Both the position numbers and the translations under genes were made by a program. From Candidatus Thorarchaeota archaeon SMTZ1-45 (GTDB taxonomy: Archaea; Asgardarchaeota; Thorarchaeia; Thorarchaeales; Thorarchaeaceae), in assembly GCA_001563335.1 (NCBI GenBank), contig LRSL01000055.1, positions 13,030-77,029 of the forward strand: a stretch of DNA of 64,000 nt, written 5' to 3'. Below, one piece after another: positions 6,248 to 25,069 of the stretch. The notes under the pieces were generated by a model. The model did no database searches, was not told where the DNA came from, and was given only the letters and a program-made list of their open reading frames with translations. Within the stretch, counting starts at the first letter, position 1, and the number at the start of each line of letters is the position of its first letter.

Positions 6248-6324
6248 TATAGAAACCGCCTTTGTCATGTGTTCTGTGCTTCGATGTCGTAAAAGTAGCT
6301 GAGTTTTAAGAGTTGCGAAGTGCT

Positions 6325-6840
6325 CTACAGCCATGCGGCAACATGAAAGAAGGCAAGAATCGGAGCCAGCAATAGGGCTCGAACAATTAGAGACTTGCCC
6401 TTTCCAGTCATATCATTTGCGCTGGGGGTGAAGTATAAGATAGCACCAGCAAGCAGACAGATTGCAACAATAGCATCCCCTAGCCAGACCAGTATCGAGA
6501 TTATCTCCGCATCAGTCATACCAAGGAGATGAAGCCAGGCGCTTGTTGCACTTTCAACTGTGATTGTTTCAACTCCACTGAGCTGAGCGAGTAGATTTAT
6601 GATAAGGGGCCCACCGAAGAAAAGAACTATGCCTGCTGCAACCAAGGATTTTGCTAGACCATCGCTAAGCCCAGTTGCATATATCATCATGCCAATCAGG
6701 ATGAAAATTAGGTAACCACGAATTGCCAGTGCAAAAAGAGCATTGAGTATCTCGCCTAATGTGCTGAACCAAGTATCAGGCAGTGGTATATCAAATGGCG
6801 ACTGTATCAATAGAAGCACTAGATTGCCCATGTGACTCAC
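6325..6840 (-). CDS. Membrane protein with two tandem hydrophobic hairpins (VirB2/TrbC pilin-like pattern)
   Basis: Four hydrophobic segments forming two similar units: [19 protein letters not shown] and [22 protein letters not shown]. Confidence 0.55.
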
Positions 6841-6875
6841 AGAAGAGAGTTAGCATGATTGGATATAATGACCAC

Positions 6876-7427
6876 TCAAACGAGCTCTTGTTTTAGAACT
6901 TGAAAATCTTCTCTCATTCGGTTTTTGACCTTAGGGAATCTGAGTGCAGCTGCTGGGTGGTAGGTCATGAAGTATTTTCTATCATCGATCTCATGGAACT
7001 GGCCATGTGCTTCTGAAACCTTCCGTGGACCGAGAAGTGAAGTGATTGCCACCCCTCCCAAGAGAACTACAACTTTGGGATTGATTATCTCAATCTGCTG
7101 TTCAAGATATGGTCTGCACGTGTTGATTTCGGCCTGAGTAGGAGTCCGATTCCTTGGGGGTCTTGACTTTAAGATGGATGTTATGAAGACATTATCTCTT
7201 GAGAAACCTATCTCTTGAATCATTGACGTTAGGAATTCACCAGATCTTCCAACAAATGGACGACCAGTTTCATCCTCACTCGCACCAGGAGCTTCACCTA
7301 TAAACATCACTTCTGAGTCCACTGAGCCTTCCCCAGGAACTGCATTGATACGTGTCTTATGTAGAGGACAAAGTGTGCAATTTCTGATTACATCATGTAA
7401 TGCTTCAAGCTGCTTTTTTCGTGTCAT
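6876..7427 (-). CDS. udg: Family-4 uracil-DNA glycosylase
   Basis: CxxC (CTLCPL), GEAPG, GRPFVGRSG, RPPxNR, YHPAA motifs. Confidence 0.93.
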   Translation of the reverse strand: MTRKKQLEALHDVIRNCTLCPLHKTRINAVPGEGSVDSEVMFIGEAPGASEDETGRPFVGRSGEFLTSMIQEIGFSRDNVFITSILKSRPPRNRTPTQAEINTCRPYLEQQIEIINPKVVVLLGGVAITSLLGPRKVSEAHGQFHEIDDRKYFMTYHPAAALRFPKVKNRMREDFQVLKQELV

Positions 7428-7491
7428 GTCTAGTTACTATATCACAATCTTAGCGATAAAAGCCACGAATTTCCAGATTACCGCTCACATA

Positions 7492-9300
7492 CTATTTTGC
7501 ACTTTCTTGATACAACAGACCAGATTCGGACATCTCTTGAAACAGTGATTGAAACTCGCCTTCCATCTTCCGCTCTATTGCATCCATTGTTTCATCATAC
7601 GAGTCCCAAGGTGCAATCTTCATTCTCGCAATGTTATCTAGAACACTGAGCTCTAGGATTCTTCGAACATGAACACCTAGCTGCACAGCTTCTGTCATCT
7701 TCTTTGTGAAGTTGATGATGATTCTCAACATACGATAGGTCTTACCCATAGGAGAGAATGTGTCAATCTCATGAAGTGCACTCTGTGTCAGAAAGTCTTC
7801 CTTAATCATCCGTGCAGCTTCTAAAACTGCACGTTCAGATTCAGGAAGTGCATCAGGTCCAACAAGCTGTACAATCTCTCTTAGTTCTTGATCTTTCTGC
7901 AAGAGAGCTAATGCTTCCTTTACTAGCTCTGGCCAGTCATTTCCCATGTTCATTCTTTGCCACTTCTCAAGAGTACCAAAGTATAGAGAATAGCTTGTCA
8001 GAGTGTTAATAGCAGGGAAGAATCTTCGGGCTGCAAGATCCTTATCAAGTGCCCAGAACACTTTAACGATCCTAAGAGTTGCTTGAGTGACTGGTTCTGA
8101 GAAGTCACCTCCAGGGGGTGAAACAGCCCCGCAGATTGTAATTGAGCCAAGTGTTTCTTTAGACCCAAGTGTCTTCACTCTACCACCACGCTCATAGAAC
8201 TGAGCTAGTCGTGAACCAAGATAGGCAGGATAGCCCTCTTCAGATGGCAGCTGTCCGAGACGACCTGAAATCTCTCGTAGTGCCTCAGCCCAACGGGAGG
8301 TTGAATCAGCCATAAGTGCTACGTCAAAGCCTTGGTCTCTGAAATATTCAGCAAGCGTGACAGCTACATAGATAGATGCTTCACGCGCTGCCACTGGCAT
8401 ATTAGATGTATTGGCAATCAGAACTGTCCGTTCCATCAGGGGACGACCTGTCTTTGGGTCTTTCAGATGTGGCCACTCCTCAAGTGCCTCTGTCATCTCA
8501 TTCCCACGTTCACCACAACCAACATAGACAACAACTTGTGCGTCTGCCCACTTAGCAAACTGATGGAGTGCGACTGTTTTTCCGGTCCCGAAACCACCTG
8601 GGATAGCACCAGTACCACCCTTTGCTTGGGGCATGAATGTATCAATGACGCGCTGTCCCGTCACCAAAGGGGTATCCATTCCAACACGTTCTTTGAAGGA
8701 ACGACCCACTCTGACGGGGGTTCTCTGCATCATCATGACATTATGGACATCACCATGTTGATCTTTCACTTTACAGATAGTTTCATTGACTGTGTACTCG
8801 CCCTTCTTAACTATCTCAACAATCTCGCCCTTCACTCCAAAGGGAATGAGAATTCTGGATGTGATGATACCTGTTTCAGGCACCTCACCAATGATGTCGC
8901 CAGGTTCAACATTGTCGCCTACTTTTACGGTGGGATTGAACTCCCATTTCTTCTCTTTGTTAAGACCTTCAACACTGAGCCCTCTTGTTATGAAGTCACC
9001 AGACATTTCTCGTAGGTCGGGTAGTGGTCTCTGAATACCATCATAGATTGATCCCAGAAGACCAGGTCCAAGTTCTACTGAAAGAGAGTCCCCTGTGGCT
9101 TCAACTGGCTCACCAGGAGCAACACCAGATGTTTCCTCATAGACCTGGGCTGTGAACTCTTCTTCTCCAACTTCAATCACTTCGCCAATTAGCTTTTGGT
9201 GTCCTACTCGCACGACTTCGTACATACGAACAGCAGGAATACCAGAGCACTTGACTACGGGTCCTGCAATACTTTCAATACGCCCAGTTTGTCTAGTCAA
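7492..9300 (-). CDS. atpA: V/A-type ATP synthase subunit A
   Basis: P-loop [50 protein letters not shown]; no intein. Confidence 0.97.
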
Positions 9301-9327
9301 TGTTCATATCTCCAGTTTGGTCTTAGC

Positions 9328-9651
9328 CTAGATGTTAATCTCGATTCCAACAGCTCTGCGAATCAGCTCTTTTAGCACTGTTTCATAGGCGCCAGTGGTT
9401 CCATTTCTGTCTGGTACCAGCAATATAACTGGTATGGGTGATTGTGAGAACTCAACGATTGTATCTTCTACTTCCGCAGCTAATGGTTCGGTGATGATGA
9501 TAAGTCCCATAGCGGGGTCTCTGAAGAACTGATAGAGCAGATCACGGGTTTCCGCTGGAGTTTTTGGAATAGCACACTCGCTCACACCGACCAACCGAAA
9601 TCCGGTGACTGTGTCCCTATCACCAATCACTGCAATCTTATCACTCGACAT
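9328..9651 (-). CDS. atpF: V/A-type ATP synthase subunit F
   Basis: KIAVIGDRDTVTGFRLVGV...IRRAVG; start trimmed to the ATG at 9651. Confidence 0.93.
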   Translation of the reverse strand: MSSDKIAVIGDRDTVTGFRLVGVSECAIPKTPAETRDLLYQFFRDPAMGLIIITEPLAAEVEDTIVEFSQSPIPVILLVPDRNGTTGAYETVLKELIRRAVGIEINI

Positions 9652-9734
9652 GGTAGATACCACTGTAGTCGGACTTGGCTCATGCTTTAGCTGTCCACTA
9701 AAAAGCATTTGGAATGAACATGATTGATAGAAAT

Positions 9735-10220
9735 CTAACCTGCAAATTGAGTAATGATGTCTTGCTCCTCGACAATTGTCCAGCAATACAGACATTTTAG
9801 CTGAACAGGGGTTCTAGAAACTACCTCATACTTGCTATGGATTGGTTCGCGCTCTTTATTTGTCACACACCGCTGATTAGGACATTTAAAGATGTCAGCA
9901 ATTATCTCAGGTAGCTGAACACGTGTCTTCTTTATGACTTTGAAGTCCTCAATAAGATTGATTGTAGCCTCTGGTGCGACAAGTGCAATTCGTGCAACCT
10001 CTTCTTCTTTGAGAAATCGATGCTCAACTTTCACAATGTCTTTTTTCCCTATCTTTGAACTGGTTATGTTCATAGCTAGAGAAACAACATTCCCATCCTT
10101 CCCTGTGATTCCTAGAATCTTTAGAACCTCTAGAGCTTTTCCAGCTCTGATATGATCAATCACAGTTCCATCATGAATCTTGACAATTCTGATTTTTTCA
10201 GTACCAACTTTCTCAGACAT
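9735..10220 (-). CDS. pyrI: Aspartate carbamoyltransferase regulatory chain
   Basis: GTVIDHI, KKDIVKVE, APEATIN, Zn ligands CPNQRC and CLYC. Confidence 0.95.
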   Translation of the reverse strand: MSEKVGTEKIRIVKIHDGTVIDHIRAGKALEVLKILGITGKDGNVVSLAMNITSSKIGKKDIVKVEHRFLKEEEVARIALVAPEATINLIEDFKVIKKTRVQLPEIIADIFKCPNQRCVTNKEREPIHSKYEVVSRTPVQLKCLYCWTIVEEQDIITQFAG

Positions 10221-12244: not shown

Positions 12245-13420
12245 TTGCCTACCAATGTTACCCCAGAATTCGACAAGCAGAGGATTATTTACGAGGAAAC
12301 AGAAGACCTCGCTCAGCGGATAGTAGAGCTTGAAAAACTTCTATCTCTTGCACCTAGACACAAGGGTGCAGAGAGAATGGTGGGGGACTACAGAAAGAAG
12401 TTGGCTACACTCAAAGCTCAGTTTGAGAAGAAACGAGAACAGGAACGTGCGCGTCGAAGTGGTAGTTCAGATGAGGGTGTTATACGAAAAGAGGGGGCTG
12501 GTCAAATCTGTCTTATTGGCGTCACAAACAGCGGAAAATCATCGCTGATCAATGCAGTCACTAATGCAGAATTTGATGTTGGTGACTATCCATTCACAAC
12601 ACCAATTCCCACTCCTGCCATGTTAACTCTGGAGGACATCAATATTCAATTGGTGGAACTTCCAGGCGTCTTTGAAGGCAGCAATGAAGCAGGAATTGGT
12701 CGGCAAGCATTATCCGTAGCTAGAAATACTGATTGTATTGCTCTGGTTATTGACCTCTCTCAGGATATTGAGCAGCAGATGAGGATTATTCTTGGGGAGT
12801 TGGATGCCGCCCGAATTCGTCTTAACAAGGAGAAGTCTGCAATCAGGATTGAGAGAGTTGGTCTGGGGGGTCATATGATCTACGGTGCCCAGAATTTTCA
12901 AGGTGACATTGAAGAGGTCAAGGAATATCTCAAAGCACGTAGAATCACAAACATAATTGTACGGTTTCAAAAACCAGCCACATTCGAACAGCTAGTTGAT
13001 GCAATGGACTCAAGTGTTGCATATGTTCGAGCAATGATTATTGCCACAAAGGGTGACGCAGAGGGGTCTGAGGCTAGATTCAAGGAGCTTGAAGAGAATT
13101 ACAGCCATCGCTTTGACATAATCCCAACCTCCGCCTTGAGAAAAGAGAATCTTGATGGCATGAGCTGGGCATTCTATGAGCATCTTGATATTCTTAGGGT
13201 CTATACAAAGATTCCAGGAAAAAAGAGAGAGGACAAACCCATTGTACTTCCTGAGGGTTCAGTAGTTGAGGATGCTGCACGAAAGGTGCACAAGGAACTC
13301 TTTGTGGAAAGGTTCCGCTCAGCTGTCATACTACGAGACAATGACAAGATCAGGAGGAGAACTGTAGGTCTCAGTTATCCGCTTCAGGATGGAGATGTAT
13401 TACAGCTTGCCCACAGGTAG
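12245..13420 (+). CDS. DRG/OBG-family GTPase with C-terminal TGS domain
   Basis: GVTNSGKS, DYPFTT, ELPG, RVYTK..G TGS domain; probable TTG start at 12245. Confidence 0.88.
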   Translation: MPTNVTPEFDKQRIIYEETEDLAQRIVELEKLLSLAPRHKGAERMVGDYRKKLATLKAQFEKKREQERARRSGSSDEGVIRKEGAGQICLIGVTNSGKSSLINAVTNAEFDVGDYPFTTPIPTPAMLTLEDINIQLVELPGVFEGSNEAGIGRQALSVARNTDCIALVIDLSQDIEQQMRIILGELDAARIRLNKEKSAIRIERVGLGGHMIYGAQNFQGDIEEVKEYLKARRITNIIVRFQKPATFEQLVDAMDSSVAYVRAMIIATKGDAEGSEARFKELEENYSHRFDIIPTSALRKENLDGMSWAFYEHLDILRVYTKIPGKKREDKPIVLPEGSVVEDAARKVHKELFVERFRSAVILRDNDKIRRRTVGLSYPLQDGDVLQLAHR

Positions 13421-13429
13421 GGATGGCAT

Positions 13430-14167
13430 TTGACAGAGTTTCCAAACCTGGTTGTAGTTCTAGTTGGTCCAGAGAATCCCGGGAACACCGGGTCTGTGGC
13501 CAGAGCTTTAGGGAACTTCGGAGTGAACGAGCTAAGAATAGTTGGGGAAGACCATCGACAGGACCAATTTGCTCAGATGCTCTCAGTGCACGCTCATGAG
13601 ATTTTGAACAATGCGGGAGTTTTTAAGAGCCTAGGTTCTGCCCTTGCTGATATTGACTTAGCGTGGGCTGCAACTGCAAGAACAGGTGGAAATCACAGCG
13701 TCACAAGAGCCTTGGTGCCTCTCTCTGAATTGCCTGATCCAAATGCGCTTGAAGGTCGTATTGCACTAGTCTTTGGAAGAGAGAGTACAGGATTGTTCAA
13801 CGATGAGATAGCGTTGTGTGACCTTGCCTTTACAATTCCAGCTTCGAAGGAATATCCAAGTCTAAACCTCAGTCATGCGGTGTCAATTGTACTTTATCAT
13901 CTGTTCTCAAAATTCGCTCCAGAAGAGCCACGAAGGCCCTATGAGACGCGAGCAGCAACATATCAGGAACGAGAACAGGTGTACAAATTTTATGATGCTA
14001 TAGTGGATCATTTGAACCTAAAGGAGCATAAAATCCCAATCGCGAAACAGGTCTTCAGAAATCTTCTAGGAAGGGCCTATATGACAGGGAGAGAGGTCTC
14101 TACACTTACTGGAGTCATCAGACGAATCAGTGAACTTGTAAATGAGCGCGAAAAGCCTGAAGATTAG
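13430..14167 (+). CDS. trmJ: TrmJ-family SPOUT tRNA methyltransferase
   Basis: VVLVGPENPGNTGSVARA, LVFGRESTGL, YPSLNLSHAV. Confidence 0.9.
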   Translation: MTEFPNLVVVLVGPENPGNTGSVARALGNFGVNELRIVGEDHRQDQFAQMLSVHAHEILNNAGVFKSLGSALADIDLAWAATARTGGNHSVTRALVPLSELPDPNALEGRIALVFGRESTGLFNDEIALCDLAFTIPASKEYPSLNLSHAVSIVLYHLFSKFAPEEPRRPYETRAATYQEREQVYKFYDAIVDHLNLKEHKIPIAKQVFRNLLGRAYMTGREVSTLTGVIRRISELVNEREKPED

Positions 14168-14703
14168 TTCCCATAGCCCATCTTACGTTTCAGTTCAGGG
14201 TCAATCTTGTCGAAGACTATCTTGCATGGAGTAGGCATCTTTGGTGCTGCTTTCTTTAGGGCGGTCATTGCTGGACCTATGTGTCGAGGGTTCACTCTAA
14301 CTGTAATCAACGGTTGTCCTGGTCGAACTCGTGCGGCGAGCCCTATTACTTTGCCCCATGCCCTTCGCATTCCATCCTGAACACGGTCTGCACCAGCTCC
14401 GGAGATCATCTTATTCTCACGGAGATAGTGGTAGGGTTTGACACGCATCCGCAGGTGATAGTTCTGTCTACCTACCTTCTTGGTCATCTCCCTGTTGGAG
14501 GCAATACGTGCAGCCTCAAGGGCTTGATGTCTAATCTGGCATCTTTCAAGACCAACCAGGGATAGCTCAACCTCAAATACACCGCTTGCGTCACCCATGT
14601 CAAAGCTAGTCAATCTGCTAGGGGGCTGTCTATGAATATACCGCCGCCTGACAAATGGCTGTCTATCACATTCTCTGTAACAATGACCTGGTCGCTTTCC
14701 CAT
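14164..14703 (-). CDS. rpl10e: 50S ribosomal protein uL16 (L10e)
   Basis: QIRHQALEAARI, LRENKMISGAGADRVQDGMRRAWGK; ATG at 14703. Confidence 0.96.
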   Translation of the reverse strand: MGKRPGHCYRECDRQPFVRRRYIHRQPPSRLTSFDMGDASGVFEVELSLVGLERCQIRHQALEAARIASNREMTKKVGRQNYHLRMRVKPYHYLRENKMISGAGADRVQDGMRRAWGKVIGLAARVRPGQPLITVRVNPRHIGPAMTALKKAAPKMPTPCKIVFDKIDPELKRKMGYGN

Positions 14704-14787
14704 AATCATCACCAATTGGTCCTTTAGCCTAGTAGCTGGCTAGAACTACTCGAAACCGCGGGGATTCCAATAAAAGGATTATGGACT
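14679..14787. repeat. Direct repeat family A, copy 1 (first codons and upstream region of rpl10e)
   Basis: Aligns by eye with 21864-21970 at roughly 80% identity, e.g. cccataatcatcac, agaactactcgaa, gattatggact. Confidence 0.9.
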
Positions 14788-14876
14788 AGACCTTGAAGAA
14801 AAGATTGCAATTCGAGAAGGGAGCATTGGTTCGATTCGTCTAGTCAAATGATGACGATAACTGCAGGACTAGCCCA

Positions 14877-15842
14877 CTAGAGGAGAATAATAGAGCTGCT
14901 AAGACCTAAGATGAGAAGTATTATTAGTATTAGGATAATTTCAAGCCACGTTCTATGTTCAATTATCTTTCTCTTCACATAATGTCTTGTTATTCTGATT
15001 TTCTTGTACTGCGCATAGCTGTAAACGGTTAGCGTAGCTGAGAACAGTATTATCCCCGCGGTGACGATTATTCTATTTGTTGGGTAATCCCAGAAGCCAT
15101 TATTGATTGTTCTTAACACTTCAGCTGATTCGGTAACGTGGTTCAACGGATCATATACAACAACCTTCAAAACGTACACAGAGTTTTCGTATCGAGTGGT
15201 GTCCCAGAGTAGTACACCCTCCAATGTGGTCCCATTGATATCAATCGTTTCATGACAATTAAATGATGATGTAGCAACAACTGTGTCATTAGCATGGAGT
15301 TCGACCATGTAAATAAAAAATCCCTCATCATGCACCCTGAAGCTCACATTTGTGATACCGGTAAGTGGTCCATCAGGAATGTGAGTTTCTTGGATTACCG
15401 GGCCTTCAATATCCCTTCCAACACGACCCTCAATTGTCGCTGCTGAGTCTGCAAAAGGGACACCGCTAACCTTGGAAAACCAGACATACCAAGTGTCACT
15501 ATGTGTTGCTTGGAAGAAAACCATGTTCAACCGACCCTCTTGTGCAGGATAACTATAATCCTCATGCTTAGTAGTTGGCTCACTCCCATTCATGATGGCA
15601 TCTTGACCTGCTTGGTCAACAATGAAGAAGTAAATACCTTCTCCATCGATAATCCGAAAACGCGCATATAGGAGCTCGTCCTGGGTGAAATATAATGAAA
15701 CATTGTGATACTCCCCGGGGTTTATTGTGAGTAACTCCATGTCCTCAACAAGGTCAGCCGTAACCTCTCCTGATTCGCAGAAGACTAGACAACATATAAC
15801 CAAAATACAAAGAATAACCGTCCTACCTGTTGGCAAACACAA
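14877..15842 (-). CDS. Secreted, C-terminally anchored protein with GOLD-like and Ig-like beta-sandwich domains
   Basis: N-terminal signal-like segment; ARFRIIDGEGIYFFIVD...TWYVWFS; WDTT..N..Y.L.V..YD Ig-like pattern; two C-terminal hydrophobic helices. Confidence 0.6.
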   Translation of the reverse strand: MCLPTGRTVILCILVICCLVFCESGEVTADLVEDMELLTINPGEYHNVSLYFTQDELLYARFRIIDGEGIYFFIVDQAGQDAIMNGSEPTTKHEDYSYPAQEGRLNMVFFQATHSDTWYVWFSKVSGVPFADSAATIEGRVGRDIEGPVIQETHIPDGPLTGITNVSFRVHDEGFFIYMVELHANDTVVATSSFNCHETIDINGTTLEGVLLWDTTRYENSVYVLKVVVYDPLNHVTESAEVLRTINNGFWDYPTNRIIVTAGIILFSATLTVYSYAQYKKIRITRHYVKRKIIEHRTWLEIILILIILLILGLSSSIILL

Positions 15843-15907
15843 TCCTCCTACGGAAATAAGAACACATCAGCTAAATTATCTTTCGACCTCAAAAAAGGAG
15901 CTTCTCA

Positions 15908-15990
15908 TTCACCTGTAGTATCAGCCCGCCATACGTTCCTACACGGATGTGTGGCTTCTCGATGATCGGTATCTCAAACAACCGGAGTAC
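15908..15990. repeat. Intergenic repeat family B, copy 1
   Basis: 15934-15990 matches 19413-19469 at 48/57 positions without gaps (manual count). Confidence 0.85.
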
Positions 15991-16027
15991 CATCATCTTT
16001 CATAAGGATTAACGTACTAACATCATT

Positions 16028-16672
16028 GTGGTTTCAGCTGTTCTCTTGATTCTTGGTCTACTGGTTATCGTACTACGAGTCAGCAACATTCACGATGGAC
16101 AAGCATGTTCTGAAAGAATCTATGACTCCCTATATGACTCATGCACAACACTAAGTTCTGACTCCCCAGTAGTTGGTCCTAATATCAGCTGGTTTCCTGA
16201 TCCGAATGTCACTATGGCCATCGATGGCTATTACAATGGTCAGAACCAAGAAATCTTCGATTATTGGGTTTGGGTAAATGATTCTCTAGGAGTTGACTCT
16301 GTGATCTTTCGTTTCAAGTGGAGTAACGACGAAAAGTGGCTGAACAGAACTACTGGATTAATAGAGGGGGATGAGTTTCATGGGAGGTACAAAGGGAATC
16401 TAACTTGGCCAGCTCCCGGTGGTGGCAATTTTCAGTTCAAGGTATTCGCCAACAATACGTTAGGATACTGGAATGAAACTAGTCCTATGTCTGTTTGGTT
16501 TGGCTACTTGTACTGGAATCCGATTTACACCCCACACTTCTGGATTCTGTTCGTGATTCTTCCACTGGTGTCATTGATTGGTCTAGTTGGAGTTTGGAAG
16601 CTTAGACAAAAACGCACGTTATCTTGGACGCATGTGACATCAGCCCACAAAGGATTATGGACTGTGACCTGA
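16028..16672 (+). CDS. Hypothetical surface protein with Ig-like domain and C-terminal membrane anchor
   Basis: N-terminal hydrophobic stretch; VNDSLGVDSV...FKVFANNTLGYWNET; several NxS/T sequons; C-terminal TM helix followed by basic residues. Confidence 0.65.
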   Translation: MVSAVLLILGLLVIVLRVSNIHDGQACSERIYDSLYDSCTTLSSDSPVVGPNISWFPDPNVTMAIDGYYNGQNQEIFDYWVWVNDSLGVDSVIFRFKWSNDEKWLNRTTGLIEGDEFHGRYKGNLTWPAPGGGNFQFKVFANNTLGYWNETSPMSVWFGYLYWNPIYTPHFWILFVILPLVSLIGLVGVWKLRQKRTLSWTHVTSAHKGLWTVT

Positions 16673-16798
16673 GAACAAAGAAATATATCGGGTAAATTCT
16701 CAAGTGATTACCACCTTCCTCAAAGAGCATAAATTGATTCATGTCAATGTATTCTGCGTGGCGTGTGCAAGCACGATTCAGATTTTGGGGGATAAAGA

Positions 16799-17578
16799 TT
16801 GAATCCAATTGAGATTAGAAATCTTGTAAAGTCCTATGGTCATTTGATTGCTGTCAATAACCTATCTTTCGATGTTCGTGAGGGTGAAATCTATGGTCTA
16901 CTAGGACCAAACGGTGCTGGGAAGACAACAACCTTGAAAGTTTTGATGGGACTTTTAGATCCTGATTCAGGAACTGTCAATGTCTTTGGAATCAGTTCGG
17001 TTTCTGATCCTATTGAGGTTAAAAAAAGAGTAGGTTATGTTCCTGAAGAACAACTTCTCTATAATTCGTTAACATCTCGAGAAATCCTTGAGTTCGTAGC
17101 GTCAATTCGTGGCCTCGATTATTTTCATGCAAAAAACCGAGTGACAGAGATGGCTCGTGCACTTGATTTTACAAGTCACTATAATAAACCAATTGTGACA
17201 TTATCTCAAGGGAATAAACAGAAGGCAATGCTTCTCATAGCAATGCTACATGCTCCTGATTTGCTGATACTCGATGAACCTTTCTCTGGTTTGGATGTTA
17301 GAACAACGCGGATAATGAAGGACGTTATTCGTATTCACACAGAAAAAGGTGGATCAGTATTATTAAGTACACACATAATGGAGATGGCTGAGGGTCTCTG
17401 TGATCGTGTTGGTATTATTGATGAAGGTGTTTTGGTAGCAGAAGGAACTCTGGAGGAGCTTCGGGATCAAGCAGAATCTGAAGGAGCTACGCTGGAGAAT
17501 GTATTTCTGAAACTAACAGGTGAAGAGGAGGAAGTCAGAGAGGGCGTCGATGCATTACGGGAGGCTTTGGACAATTGA
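16799..17578 (+). CDS. ABC transporter ATP-binding protein (ABC-2 type)
   Basis: GPNGAGKTT, LSQG signature, ILDEPFSGLD, STH. Confidence 0.93.
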   Translation: MNPIEIRNLVKSYGHLIAVNNLSFDVREGEIYGLLGPNGAGKTTTLKVLMGLLDPDSGTVNVFGISSVSDPIEVKKRVGYVPEEQLLYNSLTSREILEFVASIRGLDYFHAKNRVTEMARALDFTSHYNKPIVTLSQGNKQKAMLLIAMLHAPDLLILDEPFSGLDVRTTRIMKDVIRIHTEKGGSVLLSTHIMEMAEGLCDRVGIIDEGVLVAEGTLEELRDQAESEGATLENVFLKLTGEEEEVREGVDALREALDN

Positions 17579-19221
17579 ATTTTCGTGAGCGTTGGAAGAT
17601 TGCAGGTACCATCGCTCAGGAAATTAGATTTCATGGAATGCTAGAAGCCAACCCTTCCAATCTTTCTAGAATCAAAGAGAAACCTGAACGTGTTGTTAAT
17701 CAAATTAAGAGAAGTGCATCATGGAATGCAATCCTGACGGGGTTTGTCATCATTATGATTGGTTTTCTGATGGTGGCGTCAGTATTATTCCTTGGAATAC
17801 CTGGTGAACGCGAACTGAATTTTGCTATATCGCTTGGAATCTTCCTTGGTCTGGGTTTTGTAATAATATTCTTTGTAAATCTGACCTCCGCAGCCGGATT
17901 CTTCAATGCAGGTGCTATGCTATTACCTTCTACATTGCCATTTAGCAGACCCGATCTGGAGGGATTGATGACCTTGGTCTTTGTACGAATATTCGTAGCT
18001 CCCTACGTCCTGCTTCTGACTATTTTTCCTTTAATAACATCTCTTGCTTTTGGGATTGTCACAGGAATCTTTGTTCTTGGAGCATTAGTAACAACGCTGA
18101 TTTTATCTCTAGGTGCCTTAATCAGAGCAGCGGGATGGTTTCATCAGAAATCGCAGTCTGGTGACGAGTCAGCATTTTCGGTCATCATTCGAGTTGGGGC
18201 AGGCATAGGAATGACTCTCGGTATTGTCATGGCTTACGGCGCTATGAATTTTGTACCATATATTGTTGAATTTATCATCTTTGTTTCAACAGCTTTTAAT
18301 CCGGAAGTTCTGAGTATTTTTGCTCTAATTTTCCCATTCTCCTTTGGATTCGTTGGGGCAATGTTGACATATGGTCTTGTATTCTCTCTCCCAACAAACA
18401 CTATTGCTATTGCTGCATCAATCATCTATGTTTTTCTAAGCCTGCGAAGTTATCGTTCAAGCGGTCGAATATTGCGTTCTCTTGCACTAGGCGGTGTGCC
18501 CATGGCAGTAGCATCCACTATAAGGCCAATCGATTTGCATATCTCTTCTTCAATTCCTGCTCTCATTAGAAAAGATATCCGAGTCGCAACTCGGAGTCTT
18601 GGTTCAATTATGCTCCTTGTGTTTCCTTTTCTTATGATCTTTGTAATCCTTCCTACTTTATTCATCGGATACACTGAATCTACCGTTATACGGAGTTTTT
18701 CGGTTTTAATGGTGGTGGGATATGCTACAATGTTTGCAGGCCTCTCAATAATGGGGCTACTTGGGCTTGATACACAGGGAGCGTCAGTGTATGAAGGATT
18801 ACCACTTCAAACAAGACAAGTTCTTAACTCTAAGATAACCATATTCGCCATTTCTTATGCGGCTACATTATTGATTGTTTTCGTATTACTCCTATCTAGT
18901 CGCTTAATTTCACCATTTCTTCTATTCATACCATTATTTCAACTACCTTGTGGGTATTCAATTGGTGGAGCTGTAGGTGGTGTAATTTATAGGATACGTG
19001 GTGGTGGTCGAGTAACTTCAGTGAATCTTGTAGGTGACCAGGCAGTATCATTCATGGCCCTGATAGTAAGTGCAATAGTTGGCTTTCTACCTTTGATTGG
19101 TTATTCTGTTATCTTATTGCAAACTGGGAGTCATTTGCTATCAATCCTCTCCCAACTGTCAATATCGTTGCTTGAAATGGTTCTGTTACTAATTGGTATA
19201 CCCCGTGTCTTGAGAGATTAA
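17575..19221 (+). CDS. ABC-2 type exporter permease
   Basis: Many TM segments, LIRKDIRVATRS motif, 4-bp overlap with the ATPase gene. Confidence 0.8.
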   Translation: MNFRERWKIAGTIAQEIRFHGMLEANPSNLSRIKEKPERVVNQIKRSASWNAILTGFVIIMIGFLMVASVLFLGIPGERELNFAISLGIFLGLGFVIIFFVNLTSAAGFFNAGAMLLPSTLPFSRPDLEGLMTLVFVRIFVAPYVLLLTIFPLITSLAFGIVTGIFVLGALVTTLILSLGALIRAAGWFHQKSQSGDESAFSVIIRVGAGIGMTLGIVMAYGAMNFVPYIVEFIIFVSTAFNPEVLSIFALIFPFSFGFVGAMLTYGLVFSLPTNTIAIAASIIYVFLSLRSYRSSGRILRSLALGGVPMAVASTIRPIDLHISSSIPALIRKDIRVATRSLGSIMLLVFPFLMIFVILPTLFIGYTESTVIRSFSVLMVVGYATMFAGLSIMGLLGLDTQGASVYEGLPLQTRQVLNSKITIFAISYAATLLIVFVLLLSSRLISPFLLFIPLFQLPCGYSIGGAVGGVIYRIRGGGRVTSVNLVGDQAVSFMALIVSAIVGFLPLIGYSVILLQTGSHLLSILSQLSISLLEMVLLLIGIPRVLRD

Positions 19222-19340
19222 ATAGAAGATATTGTTGTCAAACTGTACACATGGATTCTTTCTTGCTGTAGAGATGATTATCGTTGCTGAATTGGTCTGG
19301 TGGTGTCGATTAATTGAGAATGGATGAGATGTGTTTCATG

Positions 19341-19469
19341 CGAGAATAAATCGCCCTACTTTGTATTAATCCCGAGAGAGAGTCACACTGGTAGCACCAG
19401 TGGATCGAGTCGCGTTTCTACACTGATGTGTGATATCTCGGTTATCGGTATCTCAAATAACCGGAGTGC
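19341..19469. repeat. Intergenic repeat family B, copy 2 (longest)
   Basis: 5' part aligns with 21044-21098 (cgagaataaa...ttgtat.aat...tcacactggt); 3' part aligns with 15934-15990. Confidence 0.85.
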
Positions 19470-19584
19470 AGGCTTGCTCGAACATGCTTACAATTCAGAT
19501 GAACAGTACACATCAACAACCTTCCAACATTTTATCAACATCCCAAGCGGGATATAGACGAATGATATGAGAACGTGACATTGA

Positions 19585-20043
19585 ATGATAATTATCACTG
19601 TGGTCACACTACTAGCATGGAGATTACTCAGACGCTTTAGAAAGCAGTATTCACTTGCCATATTTCTCGTTGTGATAGCTATAACCTCATTTCTCGTCAT
19701 GTACGATGTTAAGACTGCTGGAGTGTTTCGAGAGAACATAACGCCGGATTATGACATTGTTCACTACAACAGTTTCGTATTGTTCCCATTTGTTGTTCAG
19801 AAGCATCACAACTGGTCATCGCAGGAGTACTTCTATCGAGTTCTCCTCTTGGGTCGCGAAGGGAGTGTGAAGTATGAGGAAACTCCAAAGCCAGACCAGA
19901 GCGAGTACATGCATTTGTCCCTCGTAGTGATCTCTGCAATATTCTGTGTTCTAGGGTTCCTCTCCGCTTCATTGGTAATTATCGTTGTTGAGTTTGTTAA
20001 TTGGTATCGATTCAGGAAGGGAGTGCGGTGCGAAGAAAGGTAG
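19585..20043 (+). CDS. Hypothetical membrane protein
   Basis: 152-aa ORF with three hydrophobic segments. Confidence 0.55.
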   Translation: MIIITVVTLLAWRLLRRFRKQYSLAIFLVVIAITSFLVMYDVKTAGVFRENITPDYDIVHYNSFVLFPFVVQKHHNWSSQEYFYRVLLLGREGSVKYEETPKPDQSEYMHLSLVVISAIFCVLGFLSASLVIIVVEFVNWYRFRKGVRCEER

Positions 20044-21008
20044 TGGTAATATCAATAGCAGTAATTATCCTAGTCCTAATCCTTGTCTATTTTCGACCTC
20101 CTTCTTATCATACGACACCAGAAGGAATTCCAGTTTTAGATTCCGTCTTTGCAGAATTAGTTGACCAAGATCCAGATCCGGTTGTTTTCCCACAGTTTCC
20201 GGTTGTTGAAACTCCATTATCTATCACGATGGATTGCGACTACAGCCAATTTGAAAAAGTGAATGAGAGCATTGCACTGTTAGCATCGATTGAATTCAGC
20301 TTGAAAGTCTGGTATCTGACGGAATATAATCTGACAATAGACACAGATTGGACTATTCTTGATGACGAAATTTGGCGTTTCAGATTCCATGATGATAGTG
20401 TAGATGTCTATGTGTCAGTGAATTCGATATCGGGGAAAGTTTGTGGTTTTTCTTCCGTATGGCCTATTGGTGAATCACCATTCTTGCCAAATACATCGGA
20501 AAACCAATTTGCCAACTCTTCAGAACTGGAGCAATTAGCAATCGATTTCTTCAATCAATTCAACTACTCATTATCACCTCATGCAAGATATATTGGTCCT
20601 AATCTAAGATATGACTATGCCTTTCATCATGACGTTTTTGTGATTTCATTTTCTAACGTAGTTAATAATATATTAATCGAAAGTGGAATACATCTTCGTC
20701 TTGATGTTGAAGCAAATGCAATCTTAAGTTTCAGTTATACTTGGGTACATGTCGATGCCCTTCCAATAGAGAATATAATTTCCCTTGAACAAGCTAGTCA
20801 ATATGCACGGAGTTATCTAACAGAAGAAGCTAATATTTCGCAATTTACAATAAATACAGTAGAACTTCTTTTCGACAGGACTTGGACACCAGTAGGCGAC
20901 CTTTATCGACTAGGCTGGATTGTTTCCATTGACTCTGAATATATAGTAGGGTTAAAGATTGATGCAAAAAGTGGATTCATCTATGATATTGGATACAAGG
21001 TAGTCTAG
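20028..21008 (+). CDS. Hypothetical membrane-anchored extracellular protein with PepSY/YcdB-like repeats
   Basis: N-terminal TM; VSVNSISGKV, ISLEQASQYARSYL and IDAKSGFIY PepSY-like motifs; probable GTG start after GGAG. Confidence 0.6.
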   Translation: MRRKVVVISIAVIILVLILVYFRPPSYHTTPEGIPVLDSVFAELVDQDPDPVVFPQFPVVETPLSITMDCDYSQFEKVNESIALLASIEFSLKVWYLTEYNLTIDTDWTILDDEIWRFRFHDDSVDVYVSVNSISGKVCGFSSVWPIGESPFLPNTSENQFANSSELEQLAIDFFNQFNYSLSPHARYIGPNLRYDYAFHHDVFVISFSNVVNNILIESGIHLRLDVEANAILSFSYTWVHVDALPIENIISLEQASQYARSYLTEEANISQFTINTVELLFDRTWTPVGDLYRLGWIVSIDSEYIVGLKIDAKSGFIYDIGYKVV

Positions 21009-21043
21009 TCTGCTGAAACTAATAGCAGAATTTTCGTTTTCTA

Positions 21044-21113
21044 CGAGAATAAACCATCCAATCTTGTATCAATTCCGAAAGATTCACACTGGTGGAACTG
21101 GCAGTCTGGCATA
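21044..21113. repeat. Intergenic repeat family B, copy 3
   Basis: Aligns with 19341-19397 with one 2-nt gap; cagtctggcata resembles cagcccgccata in copy 1. Confidence 0.7.
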
Positions 21114-21223
21114 AAAACATCCATGTCTATTCCACTTGTATATTACACAATATCTTCAACTCTTCTGATATTATTAAAAAATCTTAAAGTCAAAAAGGGG
21201 TTATACATAATTGGGGATTTGAT

Positions 21224-21832
21224 TTGGATGAAAATCAGCCTGAGCAGGTCAGGAATAGAGTAATTGAGAGTATTAAAACGCAGAGAGCAATTCTTGTGCG
21301 GCGTGTTGCAATCATACTACTGCTTCTTTATTTTGCCGTTATGGTGGATGTTGGAAGTTACGTCTACGGGACTGTCGATCATGGGTTCTATTTTACATAT
21401 CTTGGATATGACATATTCCCCATACCGTATCAATGGGCGGTCCTTCTACCTGTAATAACTGAACTGGACCCACTCAGATCATTCATCTTCTTCACTTTCA
21501 TCGGGCAAGGGATATGGATTGTCTGGGCGTTATTAGGTATCATTTACATTGTGATGCCACTTGTTCATTGGGCATACAACATCAAGAGAGAACCAGATTC
21601 GGAAATTATGCAAGTTCGATCAGATAAGGTTGAGAAAATAGGAGTCATCACAGGGATAGTTGCAGTTCTCTCGGTATATCTTTCAGTTGTAACTTTCAGG
21701 ATCAATCTCGTGAATTATGGTCTTCTGCCACTAGTATTAGTATCAAGCTTATCAATCGTGGTCATATGTTTCCTAGTAATTGAAATTTTAAATATGATTA
21801 GAAATAAGACAAGGAAAATTCCAGTCACTTAG
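21224..21832 (+). CDS. Hypothetical multi-pass membrane protein
   Basis: 202-aa ORF with about four TM segments. Confidence 0.6.
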   Translation: MDENQPEQVRNRVIESIKTQRAILVRRVAIILLLLYFAVMVDVGSYVYGTVDHGFYFTYLGYDIFPIPYQWAVLLPVITELDPLRSFIFFTFIGQGIWIVWALLGIIYIVMPLVHWAYNIKREPDSEIMQVRSDKVEKIGVITGIVAVLSVYLSVVTFRINLVNYGLLPLVLVSSLSIVVICFLVIEILNMIRNKTRKIPVT

Positions 21833-21863
21833 TGATGAATCATTTAGAAACACTAGATCAATC

Positions 21864-21970
21864 AACAATGATCTGGTTCTCTCCCATAATCATCACAAAT
21901 TGGTCTTTTAAACTAGTATCTAGTCAGAACTACTCGAACCAACGGGGAGTCAGTACAATGATTATGGACT
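21864..21970. repeat. Direct repeat family A, copy 2 (decayed duplicate of the rpl10e 5' end and promoter)
   Basis: See 14679-14787; same orientation, two single-base indels. Confidence 0.9.
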
Positions 21971-21999
21971 GTGATCTGATTGCATCTGACATTTGTAAA

Positions 22000-22512
22000 C
22001 TACATATGTCGAAGGCACACTTCGAATTGTGTTTGAAAGACAGCTGAGCCGGTATCTAAGTCAATGAAACGAAGTGCCCAAATGTATGCTCCGATAAAGC
22101 TTACACCAAAATAGCCAGTGGAGTATTCTGTGCCTGTCAAATCCCAACCGCCTCCACTACCATATCCCTCAAATGAATCTATCTTGTCAGAGTCGTTGAG
22201 TGACATAAAACTGGTTAATGTCATATGTGCATAACCAAATTCTAGTATGAAATTATCTTCATTTTTGTTATGACTAAATAAGACACCCTCAACACCAACC
22301 CCGTACTCCAGATGGTCATCATCAATAATGAACTCCCTACAGAACCATTCCCCGTTGCTTAAACTGATACTTTCTCCGGGACTCGAATATATGATCTCTC
22401 TTTGTCCCAAATACATTGGAATGATACTAGGGCCTACTAATATTAGAAATAGCACTGAGAGGACACCAATAGAAAACAAGATTCGTCTTCTTTTTGTTGT
22501 TTCTTCCACCAA
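22000..22512 (-). CDS. Hypothetical protein with N-terminal membrane anchor
   Basis: KRRR followed by a TM helix, then a beta-rich domain. Confidence 0.6.
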   Translation of the reverse strand: MVEETTKRRRILFSIGVLSVLFLILVGPSIIPMYLGQREIIYSSPGESISLSNGEWFCREFIIDDDHLEYGVGVEGVLFSHNKNEDNFILEFGYAHMTLTSFMSLNDSDKIDSFEGYGSGGGWDLTGTEYSTGYFGVSFIGAYIWALRFIDLDTGSAVFQTQFEVCLRHM

Positions 22513-22596
22513 GATTCATCCTCTGGGTTTCTTATCTTCACTGATTTTTGTAAAATTCGTTCTACTGGATAAATAGCTTTCAAAACTTATGTACTC

Positions 22597-22626
22597 TTGT
22601 CCAGGTCTTGTCCAAGACTTGGACAA
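22597..22626. promoter_or_regulatory. Nested palindrome, candidate transcription-factor operator between divergent genes
   Basis: TTGTCCAGGTCTTG-TC-CAAGACTTGGACAA (13/14 inverted match), containing the perfect TTGTCCAAG-A-CTTGGACAA. Confidence 0.45.
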
Positions 22627-22740
22627 TCTCTTCATAATAGATGTTATTTGTGATCATGCATAATGACGTCAAATGAGTAGTCGTGTTTGAAACGAGATAG
22701 AAGATATTGCTTAAGAACAAAAGATGGTTATCGTTGATAC

Positions 22741-23133
22741 ATGAAAGAAGAGCTCATAGCACCCTGTGGCATGAACTGTGCAATATGTGTTGCATACTTT
22801 GGATATAGAATGGATGGAGGCAGGAGAAAGACTGCATGTAGTGGTTGTAGAATTAAGAACAAGGATTGTGCCTTTGTCAAAAAGCAATGTGAACTTCTTT
22901 CCAAACACCAGATTGAGTATTGTTTCGAGTGCGATCACTTTCCTTGTGAGCAGTTAAAGAAACTTGACAAGCGCTACAGAATTAGATTCAATATGAGCAG
23001 TATTGAGAACTTGGAGAACATAAGAGATAATGGAGTTAGAAAGTTCCTCAAACAGCAAAGGACAAGATACAGATGTCCTGAATGCGGTGGCACTATATGT
23101 GTTCACACCAACAGATGCTATAGTTGCTCTTGA
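22741..23133 (+). CDS. DUF3795-family Cys-rich protein
   Basis: APCGMNCAIC, CSGCR, CFECDHFPC, C-terminal CPECGG...CYSC. Confidence 0.85.
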   Translation: MKEELIAPCGMNCAICVAYFGYRMDGGRRKTACSGCRIKNKDCAFVKKQCELLSKHQIEYCFECDHFPCEQLKKLDKRYRIRFNMSSIENLENIRDNGVRKFLKQQRTRYRCPECGGTICVHTNRCYSCS

Positions 23134-23189
23134 AATCAAGAGATTGAAAAGGAGTACTGATACAAGATATAGAGAAGGAGTATTGAATT

Positions 23190-23408
23190 ATGGGAAAGAA
23201 AGGAGTTGCAGCTGGTGTTCTGACCTTCCTTGTAGGGTTGGTGTTAGTCATAGATGACCTCCACGACTTTGTCGCAGGGACTGATTTTCTTCACTTCCTG
23301 CCAGACTTTGACCCCTATATCATCTTTGGATTCCAGCTACACCATCTCTACATTGGTATTGTATTAATCCTGATTGGACTAGCCATTGCCATGAAGTATG
23401 ATGAGTAG
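23190..23408 (+). CDS. Small hypothetical membrane protein
   Basis: Two TM segments, QLHHLYIG motif, GGAG upstream of the ATG. Confidence 0.65.
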   Translation: MGKKGVAAGVLTFLVGLVLVIDDLHDFVAGTDFLHFLPDFDPYIIFGFQLHHLYIGIVLILIGLAIAMKYDE

Positions 23409-23420
23409 CGCACTTGAAGT

Positions 23421-23825
23421 CTACTTCTCACTCTTCACACGAGGCTCAGCGACGACCTGAATTGGATTACCCTCAGGGTCCTTCAGATTGAAGTAGGAAA
23501 CCATGTCAGGAATATCCATGATGTCAGATGTGTCTAGACCTTTACTTTCGAGGTATGTCTTGCAAGCATCGAGATCATCAACATCCAAAGTAAGAGTTCC
23601 TGAACCTTGACGATGTTCACCATCGCGAATGAGGTTGATACCAAGCTTGGCGCCCCTTGCAGGGAGTGCAAACTCAGCCCAACCGACTTCAGCACCTCCG
23701 TCCCAGGTTATGTCAAAACCCATGATTTCAGAGTAGAACTTTTTCGCACGATCAAAGTCCTTCACTTGATATTGAAAATATACGGATCCTTCTTTGTAGG
23801 GCATTGGCCATTTCTTATCGCTCAT
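23421..23825 (-). CDS. VOC/glyoxalase-family protein
   Basis: VKDFDRAKKFYSEIMGF, LDVDDLD, LKDPEGNPIQ; start trimmed to 23825. Confidence 0.88.
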   Translation of the reverse strand: MSDKKWPMPYKEGSVYFQYQVKDFDRAKKFYSEIMGFDITWDGGAEVGWAEFALPARGAKLGINLIRDGEHRQGSGTLTLDVDDLDACKTYLESKGLDTSDIMDIPDMVSYFNLKDPEGNPIQVVAEPRVKSEK

Positions 23826-23883
23826 AACAATCATGCTATTCAGGTATAATTGTGATTTAACTATTGTGAACACAGTAGAGGTT

Positions 23884-24819
23884 CTATAAACCTTGAAGGC
23901 ATGCGATTGCAATCAATGGGAAAAGGATAGTTGCATCACCAATAACGGTCTCAAAGTTCGCTTCTGTCTGTACTTTTTGCCAGGATATCCCCTCATCAAG
24001 GGGTGCACCACCAAGACTACCACCCTCAGGTCGGTCAAGTGTGATTTGAACAGCCATGTCGAGACCCCCCCTAAGAATAGTAGAACCCATGGTGAAGTGC
24101 TTTGTGAGACCTCCTCCAAGCATGATGGCTCCGGTTTTTTTCTGTTCTGTCACAATTTTACCAAGAATTCTGAGATCCTTCACAAAGTCAAGGGCAAGAT
24201 TCTTGGTTGTGCTGTAAGTATAGAGATGAAATCCTAACATGGAGTCCATGAGACCGGGAGAGAATATCGGAATATTATGAAGAGCAGCCTGTTTGACGAT
24301 GGAGTTGTCATCTTCGATTGTCATGCCAAGTTCAGTAAGAAATTCACTTGGAGCAAGAGTTGTCAGTTTCTCATCAGAGAGTCTGTCGAGGAATCCATAG
24401 ATACCCTTCTCGAAGAGCTCAAAGTCCTTTTCGTGCACGAAAATGTCTGCTATTCGTCCCATTCCAGCCTCGCGAAGTTCAACATCATCCTTTGAGGGCG
24501 GAACTCTGAAGTGGCTGCCTCCATATGCCTCGACAAGATCATGTACAATGTTTGCGCCACTTGTGACGATAGCTTGGATGAAACCCTTCTCAACAAGATG
24601 ACGAACAATGTTTCGTAGACCTCCTGGAACCATAGGTCCAGACATAGAGAGGAATGTAAAGCAGTCCGTGTCGTCAAACATGCGCTTTGTAATTTCAGCA
24701 GCTCTTCCCAGTCTTCCTGCTCCAAGAACACCCACCTTTTCCATGGCTTTGAGATAATCAGGGATTTCCTTGATCTTAGTAGGGTCTACATGGTTGACCT
24801 TGTCCAAATCAGTCACCAA
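23884..24819 (-). CDS. dys: Deoxyhypusine synthase
   Basis: SGPMVPGGLR, TSGANIVHD, LGGGLTKH, GSLGGA..DEGISWQK with the catalytic Lys. Confidence 0.92.
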   Translation of the reverse strand: MVTDLDKVNHVDPTKIKEIPDYLKAMEKVGVLGAGRLGRAAEITKRMFDDTDCFTFLSMSGPMVPGGLRNIVRHLVEKGFIQAIVTSGANIVHDLVEAYGGSHFRVPPSKDDVELREAGMGRIADIFVHEKDFELFEKGIYGFLDRLSDEKLTTLAPSEFLTELGMTIEDDNSIVKQAALHNIPIFSPGLMDSMLGFHLYTYSTTKNLALDFVKDLRILGKIVTEQKKTGAIMLGGGLTKHFTMGSTILRGGLDMAVQITLDRPEGGSLGGAPLDEGISWQKVQTEANFETVIGDATILFPLIAIACLQGL

Positions 24820-25069
24820 GAGCGAACCATGAGCTTGCTGAGATAAGTCATTCTGTTGAGATGAAATGAAAGAAACGAGCCCAGGCCATATTCCGGGAGG
24901 GCAGGACCTGGACTCACAAATCCAGAACGAATTCTAAATATATTATGACAGGAACAATGTTCAGGTTTGTTTCGACTCTAGATACTGTTTGACGAATTGT
25001 TGTAGAGTGGGGAGGCTTCCGAAAGTAATCATTAGAAGCGTACTTCAATACGTTTAAACGCTAAGACCC

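Follow-up and report, generated by a model that had tools for sequence, protein, structure and literature searches.

A displaced duplicate of the rpl10e promoter and first codons within an additive insertion hotspot of a Thorarchaeota genome

The duplicated start of rpl10e and its contig support

The gene rpl10e, which encodes a ribosomal protein of the L10e/L16 family, lies in a 64,000-nucleotide (nt) stretch of the Candidatus Thorarchaeota archaeon SMTZ1-45 genome (contig LRSL01000055.1, positions 13,030 to 77,029). We refer to this whole stretch as the window and use its own numbering throughout. We analysed a segment comprising the first codons and promoter of rpl10e that recurs some 7 kb away, together with the genes between and beside the two copies. 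The gene itself occupies 14164-14703 on the minus strand (Pfam Ribosomal_L16, 1.4e-29), and its ATG was set to 14703 by an alignment of 22 genus sequences. Copy A of the repeat (14679-14787, minus strand) spans codons 1-8, one base of codon 9 and approximately 84 nt of upstream sequence. Copy B (21864-21970, minus strand) is a direct repeat of it, with 89 of the 109 aligned columns identical (82%) and two 1-nt gaps. The initial annotation had reported the rpl10e start to be repeated in the same orientation at about 80% identity, in good agreement with this measurement. The copies start 7184-7185 nt apart, and the two versions of their ungapped 73-nt core, also 82% identical, are 7184 nt apart. 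Across the complete assembly (3,544,182 bases), only copy A (E value 1.9e-51) and copy B (3.0e-22) were matched, the next match having an E value of 0.34.

On its minus strand copy A carries CAGTCCATAATCC TTTTATTGG, followed by a hairpin leader of about 45 nt, a Shine-Dalgarno-like GGTGAT, the ATG at 14703-14701 and the codons for MGKRPGHC. The sequence CCATAATCCTTTTATT is invariant in 21 aligned genus copies that are attached to rpl10e, and also in a displaced copy in a related genome, G004, described below. By its position, and from the archaeal promoter consensus, we take it to be a TATA box with an upstream element at the position of the B recognition element (BRE). The distal edge of the promoter is formed by a box, box 1, at 14773-14788 on the plus strand (AAAGGATTATGGACT plus one nucleotide). 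Copy B has a 1-nt deletion in codon 3-4 and reads MGENQIIVD followed by a stop codon; its TATA sequence is CATTGTACT, compared to CCTTTTATT in copy A, and its own box, box 3, lies at 21956-21971. Copy B therefore reads as a frameshifted orphan of the rpl10e start with a decayed TATA box, and we use the term orphan for such displaced copies. In the leader of rpl10e itself (14715-14760, minus strand), the arms of the hairpin vary by species and stay complementary in our by-eye reading of the alignment (TAGCC..GGCTA, CGGTC..GACCG, TGCCCAcTGGGCA, CTGCTCAgTGAGCAG), and it may be a regulatory leader.

The source genome is a metagenome-assembled genome (MAG) that is 88% complete with 5.8% contamination. 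Both junctions are covered by independently assembled contigs from four public runs of four studies (X1 to X4), with 0-2 differences. Copy A is bridged by X1 record 3 (14365-15969), and copy B with both of its flanks by X1 record 8 (18984-25000, 0 differences), although X1 may be the source sample. Copy B and both flanks are also bridged by X2 record 15 (20879-23515) and X3 record 22 (21446-22024), and the spanning contigs of X1-X3 rule out the objection that copy B is an assembly chimera. The runs X2-X4, which come from other studies, contain 60-79% of the sampled words from 14100-23400, and their longer pieces on 13000-25000 are collinear with the window. The same island is therefore present in other samples. 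The stretch was found in none of the RNA runs.

A variable region between rpl10e and deoxyhypusine synthase

We found rpl10e in 38 of the 41 genomes searched and took 18 stretches around it; the contigs of several relatives break at the gene. The relatives consist entirely of MAGs and metagenome contigs, 28 genomes were drawn to represent the genus, and related genomes are not independent observations. Twelve genus genomes have rpl10e and the deoxyhypusine synthase (DHS) gene on one stretch. In all twelve, a DRG-GTPase gene, SpoU and rpl10e are kept on one side and DHS on the other, mostly together with a small open reading frame (ORF) of family F2 and a gene for a glyoxalase-fold protein; beyond DHS, where the stretch reaches that far, follow a 215-aa protein and L35Ae. 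The interval from rpl10e to F2 holds 1.5-10.3 kb of genes that differ among these genomes, for example LVIVD-repeat, MFS, TPR, PepSY and radical-SAM proteins and many unknown membrane proteins.

Of 13 genus loci, 10 lose DNA homology to the window at 14784-14789, two at the start codon and one at 14819; homology restarts at 23163-23190 in 12 of 12 loci. The variable region is therefore 14788-23162, and it includes two genes to the right of copy B. The initial annotation had taken copy B as the boundary of the island; the variable region extends past it to 23162. Unoccupied versions of the site were also found. In a sister-family genome the gap between rpl10e and DHS is 92 nt. The loci in which rpl10e adjoins DHS are L056 and, from a metagenome scan that returned 53 loci (rpl10e identity 71-89%), L128, L137, L138 and L165, where the distance is 119-188 nt. 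Six further loci of the scan (L130, L132, L150, L151, L157 and L169) have only F2, with or without the glyoxalase gene, between rpl10e and DHS. An empty site or different cargo in relatives was what the initial annotation had proposed to look for, and both exist, in the sister-family genome and metagenome loci and in the twelve genomes, respectively; the situation it had named as fatal to its proposal, a single gene set with both copies in all relatives, is not what is found. Judging from these alignments, 14788-23162 is this species' version of a genus-wide additive insertion hotspot that reaches from the rpl10e promoter to the F2/glyoxalase/DHS block.

A second rpl10e of 70-74% identity, with no DRG, SpoU or DHS gene nearby, was observed at G000:C86:64175-64711 (L055), on G022:C20, G003:C139 and G023:C50, and in L149, L159 and L163. 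It adjoins TFIIB and an Ssb-like OB protein in L149 and L159, and L163 also has TFIIB genes. This gene is either a genus paralogue or belongs to a co-binned lineage.

Orphaned copies of the rpl10e start occur in two other lineages. Genome G004 has a 108-nt copy of codons 1-8, leader and promoter on contig C18, and in the metagenome contig L153 an orphan lies 6.2 kb from the true copy, to which it is 79% identical over 286 nt. The left boundary falls after ...TGT T in the window, after ...TGT in G004 and after ...TGT TAT in L153, in each case within codons 8-9, such that three lineages share the same boundary. The use of the rpl10e 5' end and promoter as an insertion anchor, as the initial annotation had suggested for the window, is thus recurrent, with differing cargo, empty sites and two more lineages that have this boundary. 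Beyond the left boundary of the orphan, the window and G004 have only CAATC in common, and 176 of 2000 shuffles align as well. BLAST with copy A gave no second match in the 27 other genus genomes, the orphan being listed for G004 instead of the attached copy, and an nhmmer profile of the attached copies gave two matches in 2 of 92 sequences (the window and L153); both methods miss strongly decayed orphans.

The G004 orphan (L064, G004:C18, 3-1523) has an intact TATA box and lies 73 nt upstream of an ORF for a 447-aa membrane protein, making promoter capture possible. The L153 insert (3813-9754 in native coordinates) is bounded by the repeat and is 5.9 kb long, and its six genes all run in one direction. 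One encodes a phage-like HNH endonuclease that has a CGNR zinc finger, and another a 326-aa protein whose match to PriS is weak; the remaining four are unknowns. Searches against PHROGs, PADLOC and PDB sequences and two protein-atlas look-ups named only the HNH endonuclease and the PriS-like match (24 residues, E value 0.0066). This insert may be a defence module or a mobile element.

We also compared the promoters of relatives with the genes to which they are attached. In a tree of rpl10e (first 30 nt removed) and SpoU, G004 is placed beside G022, and the two are 85-86% identical over rpl10e codons 9-110. The G004 orphan is 85.2% identical to the upstream region of G022, compared to 67-70% for the attached G004 copy, whose best match is G013 (77-78%). 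On these identities the orphan is therefore the native promoter of G004, and the attached working promoter came with foreign DNA. A second case involves the sisters G010 and G043, which are 90.6% identical in SpoU and 92% in rpl10e codons 9-110 but only 76% in the upstream region, while the upstream region of G010 is 93% identical to that of G018, a genome with which it shares only 69% in rpl10e codons 9-40. The promoter and first codons have thus moved between species as one module, which breaks at the gene start. Going by these sequence comparisons, incoming DNA can supply a working rpl10e promoter, as in G004. The nearest relatives of the window in the coding region, G014 and G010, are also among its nearest relatives upstream.

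Modules, box and element E

Reading from rpl10e, the first gene between the copies is i1 (14877-15842, minus strand), which encodes a 321-aa membrane or secreted hypothetical protein and has no homologue in other hotspots. It is followed on the plus strand by i2 (16028-16672), a 214-aa membrane hypothetical. The next interval, 16649-19472 on the plus strand, is an ABC module comprising an ATPase gene (16799-17578), a permease gene (17575-19221), a spacer and a copy of a short repeat that we call element E. After this come i5 (152 aa, family F9) and i6 (335 aa, family F14), both membrane-anchored (19585-21008, plus strand), and i7 (21224-21832, plus strand), whose 202-aa product has five hydrophobic segments. 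Each of the six hypothetical ORFs in this interval has 1-5 hydrophobic segments of 19 aa, and none gave a Pfam, PHROGs or NCBIfam match, although a homologue of i6 in G007 matches PepSY. The ATPase matches Pfam ABC_tran (1.1e-30), and its best NCBIfam match is to the DrrA subfamily, below the cut-off; its 548-aa partner has 14 hydrophobic segments and no Pfam match. The initial annotation had described this cargo as secreted or membrane hypotheticals and an ABC-2 exporter. The membrane-type hypotheticals and the ABC ATPase are borne out, and the assignment of its partner lacks a Pfam match. At 16033, at the start of i2, the contigs of X1, X2 and X3 hold 23 extra nt compared to the window, and therefore the start or frame of i2 in the window may be wrong.

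To the right of copy B, still within the genus-variable region, are F10 (170 aa, 22000-22512, minus strand) and a gene for a DUF3795 protein (22741-23133), together occupying 22000-23133. The conserved right flank (23163-24819) begins with the 72-aa F2 ORF (23190-23408, plus strand), followed by the glyoxalase-fold gene (23421-23912, minus strand) and DHS (23884-24819, minus strand). The G+C content is 0.44-0.47 in the flanks, approximately 0.41 over 16000-20000 and 0.36-0.39 over 20000-23000; overall the island has 0.36-0.43, and the low-G+C tract continues beyond copy B. ARAGORN found no tRNA gene within 36 kb of the island, and an Rfam scan of 13000-25000 at E values up to 1 returned nothing. 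The rest of the window holds housekeeping genes. These include an Asgard-type, eukaryote-like cluster at 32225-36084 with three Roadblock/LC7 proteins, an Arf-like small GTPase and a Sec23/24-like protein.

The interval 16649-19472, with the ABC genes, spacer and E, is 91.2% identical to G022 over 2824 nt and 91.6% identical to G018 over 2580 nt, whereas the flanks of these genomes are only 75.5-81.4% identical to the window. Six genomes contain the ABC genes, in three or more contexts, and families F9-F18 are likewise shuffled. By these comparisons the 7 kb between the copies is a mosaic of at least three modules, assembled in several steps. The earlier description of one island of about 7 kb is not borne out in this respect, as the ABC module is shared with two other species at 91% nucleotide identity.

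Many of the junctions carry one of two hotspot-specific repeats, the box or E. The box, AAAG GATTATGGACT G, is the 16-nt sequence at the distal promoter edge; box 2 (16649-16664, plus strand) forms the left junction of the ABC module. An 11-mer of the box is found at 14777, 16653 and 21960, three occurrences compared to 0.04 expected, and none of 100 shuffles reached three. Across the genus, a 13-mer of the box occurs 29 times in 17 of 28 genomes, compared to 2 occurrences of a reversed control. Fourteen of these matches lie on contigs other than the rpl10e hotspot stretches compared above: six are on hotspot pieces, one is near a hotspot-type gene, one is at a contig end and six are unrelated, at least three of the latter being readable as coding by our own reading. 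Box copies outside promoters have nine different left contexts and diverge from the promoter directly after AAAG, between the TATA and the BRE position, and all box copies with a readable orientation are direct.

Several junctions can be located precisely at the box. The small F13 gene has the box upstream and three different left neighbours, and the F18 upstream region with the box leads into F11 in one genome and into the ABC genes in a second. Downstream of the permease stop codon, G018, G019 and G021 read ...TAGA(A/T)G followed directly by GATTATGGACTG. In G022, compared to these three, approximately 260 nt (spacer and E, ending in GTCTAAG) are inserted exactly at the left edge of the box, after which comes the same F13 flank. 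The box 16-mer was also sought in viral contigs, where the 38 matches are about what we estimate for chance, and none of these contigs has protein or DNA similarity to the hotspot. An extended box, GAAAGGATTATGGACTGG, lies at 3063-3080 of L059 (G015:C90), away from the rpl10e hotspot of G015. A gene homologous to one in the G007 hotspot is about 2.3 kb away, and this box may represent a second site of docking.

Element E is approximately 160 nt long, with a TATA-like start (TTTCATACGAGAATAAAAC), a 23-bp imperfect hairpin and a conserved tail. The window has a near full-length copy at 19333-19473 with the TATA-like start, the hairpin and core D3b, a 3' fragment with the 55-nt core D3a at 15934-16032 and a 5' fragment at 21028-21102, all on the plus strand. 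Matches to E occur in 15 of 28 genus genomes. We found 16 copies or fragments in the sequences searched, and all 13 that have rpl10e on the same stretch share one orientation. The hairpin has 89% of its cells paired, compared to 28-48% with slid partners, and the predicted fold has -18 kcal/mol. Covariation is weak and does not exceed that of shuffles, 47 of 500 reaching the observed number of pairs with double changes, and an RNA function is therefore not supported by it. The 55-nt core alone was considered as an RNA structure and rejected (-2.5 kcal/mol, no compensatory pairs). Candidate roles for E are those of a small RNA, a recombination site and a portable promoter-leader. Contigs of the public runs contain two joints that involve E. 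One, 21082 to 15934, is the intact E of a relative. The other, 14785 to 15936 in contigs of X1-X3, runs from where the promoter box ends to where the E core begins and skips i1; because its matching sides are only 25-29 nt long, it may come from a relative that co-occurs in the samples and not from a variant form of the genome studied here.

Origin of the displaced copy and comparison with known systems

Considering the repeat together with the hotspot, we propose that copies A and B are probably the scar of a single-crossover insertion at an unusual anchor in the additive hotspot 14788-23162, the modules of which were joined at the box and E. The incoming DNA would have carried its own segment of rpl10e codons 1-8, leader and promoter. 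A single (Campbell-type) crossover between this segment and its chromosomal counterpart, with a circular DNA as the donor, would place both copies in the chromosome; one would then drive rpl10e, and the other, stranded 7.2 kb away, would decay. An event of this type, as in the model of the initial annotation, is the simplest that yields the order gene body, copy, cargo, copy and old neighbour. The modules between the copies would have been joined stepwise at the 16-nt box, between the TATA and the BRE position, and at copies of E. The sharp boundaries at codon 8-9 and between AAAG and G, together with the uniform orientation, would fit a defined attachment (att) segment. For the enzyme, we are about evenly divided between a trans-acting recombinase with the box as its site and homologous recombination by the host across the 16-286 nt in common.

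A number of observations weigh against this proposal. The mismatches between copies A and B are spread evenly, with no identical crossover tract, and therefore either the event is old or the copies come from different lineages. No joint from 14787 to 21971, as expected of an empty site, and no circle junction was present among the contigs of the four public runs, although contigs drop rare forms. In G004, rpl10e is on contig C61, separate from the orphan on C18. None of the 68 window ORFs scanned has a Pfam match to recombinase or transposase families, which agrees with the initial annotation that the window lacks an integrase. Between the copies, Pfam, PHROGs and NCBIfam name only the ABC ATPase, and no integrase, replication or transfer gene was found there. 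No recombinase was found in any hotspot examined, and the tyrosine recombinase family PF00589 has no match in this 88%-complete genome and matches in only 8 of the 28 genus genomes. The box upstream of the ABC genes has one substitution in G018 and two in G008, like their flanks, and therefore selection on the box as a site is not demonstrated; in G019 and G021 the junction of the ABC module is formed by E fragments instead of the box. Lastly, the promoter comparison does not tell which copy is native in the window. The view in the initial annotation that incoming DNA must supply the promoter accordingly holds for G004, where the attached copy is foreign and the orphan native, and yields no call for the window itself.

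The junctions also admit a more elaborate scheme, which we put forward as a tentative possibility that we would not bet on. The locus could be an integron-like platform of this Asgard genus, with no integrase beside it, in which modules dock at the BRE/TATA edge of the rpl10e promoter, the box is the crossover core and E is a cassette-borne recombination or expression module. Cutting would fall to a recombinase encoded elsewhere or to a transcription-factor-tethered activity, and each insertion would rebuild the promoter.

It is also conceivable, but in our judgement unlikely, that the orphan was formed elsewhere. Under this explanation, species exchange the hotspot through double homologous crossovers in its conserved flanks, on the rpl10e and DHS sides, and the orphan, already old, arrived with its neighbours in such an exchange. 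The flanks do form a mosaic of identities: G022 and G018 are 89% identical in rpl10e nt 31-180 but 77% upstream, and the nearest relative of G004 differs between SpoU and rpl10e. The modules held in common by species at 91% and the even divergence of copies A and B point the same way. Import would, however, merely relocate the origin of the orphan. The G004 orphan is as near to its sister's live promoter (85%) as is the adjoining coding sequence, so it formed near that split, and none of i1, i2, i7 or an orphan beside F10 was found in any relative searched.

The direct orientation of the copies, the lack of mobility genes and the stepwise mosaic between them would equally be produced by a local tandem duplication of the rpl10e 5' region, through unequal crossing-over or slippage, followed by unrelated insertions of DNA that carried no repeat. 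We consider this improbable. The neighbours of the two copies, i1 and F10, are not paralogues, three lineages that differ in promoter type share the boundary, and the attached copy of G004 is foreign. Furthermore, a tandem duplication within the genus finds no parallel in the BLAST search with copy A, which gave a second match in 0 of 27 other genus genomes, although for G004 it returned the orphan and not the attached copy.

There is little to recommend the idea that copy B is retained because it has a function, for example that of a terminator or regulatory element where i7 and F10 converge, or of a promoter for antisense transcription. Copy B nearly fills the gap between these genes (21833-21999), its hairpin is still possible (ACTAG tat CTAGT), and the G004 orphan with its intact TATA box stands upstream of an ORF. 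In the window, however, copy B has lost its TATA box, its frame is broken and it points into the 3' end of i7, and nothing comparable lies downstream of F10 homologues in the genomes G018 and G013. Finally, an assembly or binning artefact, for which one might invoke the contamination of the MAG and the relatives' contigs that break at rpl10e, can be dismissed given the independent contigs of four studies across both junctions.

To our knowledge, few integration sites have been described for Asgard archaea, and a limited full-text literature search returned no description of an island anchored at rpl10e. How this group gains and loses genes matters for understanding the way in which the large, mosaic genome of the archaeal ancestor of eukaryotes came about. 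At the locus described here, genes have been gained repeatedly and in a specific orientation at the promoter of an essential gene, each event having to replace the promoter and first codons, and this promoter is itself exchanged between species as a module. As a defined genus-wide locus with empty, small and large states, it is suited to the study of gene-flow rates, donors and the mechanism of recombination.

Among known systems, integrons resemble the locus in several ways. They too have a promoter-proximal array in one orientation and a short conserved junction, with insertion in our locus occurring exactly at the box edge, and an imperfect palindrome, here E, is found at several module junctions, following the ABC genes in both the window and G022. 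Unlike in integrons, there is no match to IntI or a tyrosine recombinase in the 68 window ORFs or the genome, and the box, AAAGGATTATGGACTG, lacks the GTTRRRY core (attC: RYYYAAC / GTTRRRY). The resident promoter reads away from the cassettes, many junctions have neither E nor box, and the modules often contain multiple genes. The locus is integron-like in the logic of its array but fails the defining tests of an integron.

Tycheposons reportedly carry tyrosine recombinases and use tRNA genes. As described in the part of the Prochlorococcus report on which we draw, they are similar to our locus in being cargo islands in a lineage said to lack common transfer mechanisms (bioRxiv 10.1101/2020.12.28.424599). 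Elements integrated in Asgard genomes have been described from a closer host. Yucahu-i of Atabeyarchaeia has an 11-bp att at an AT-rich motif, and aloposons reside at tRNA sites (PMC11529989, PMC8813620). In the portions of these accounts available to us, they have in common with the locus an Asgard host, short direct repeats that bound the insert and a smaller unit nested in a larger one; unlike the locus, they encode tyrosine integrases, are seen as circles and target tRNA genes or an AT-rich motif (PMC11529989, PMC8813620).

The closest known kind is the additive flexible genomic island of marine bacteria such as Alteromonas. In the sections of that study that we draw on, six of eight hotspots are anchored at a tRNA or tmRNA gene, mostly at its 3' end (PMC4898812). 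Our locus is instead anchored at the promoter and 5' end of a protein-coding gene that is essential, which means that an insert must restore the promoter; the host is an archaeon, and an integrase was not found. As far as the same sections go, the likenesses are nonetheless extensive (PMC4898812). In both cases a fixed site holds differing cassettes in each relative, and a partial direct repeat of the target gene lies beyond the cassettes, here copy B and the orphans of G004 and L153. Cassettes cross species at an identity above that of the core, as the ABC module does here, and the cargo consists mostly of transporters and surface proteins.

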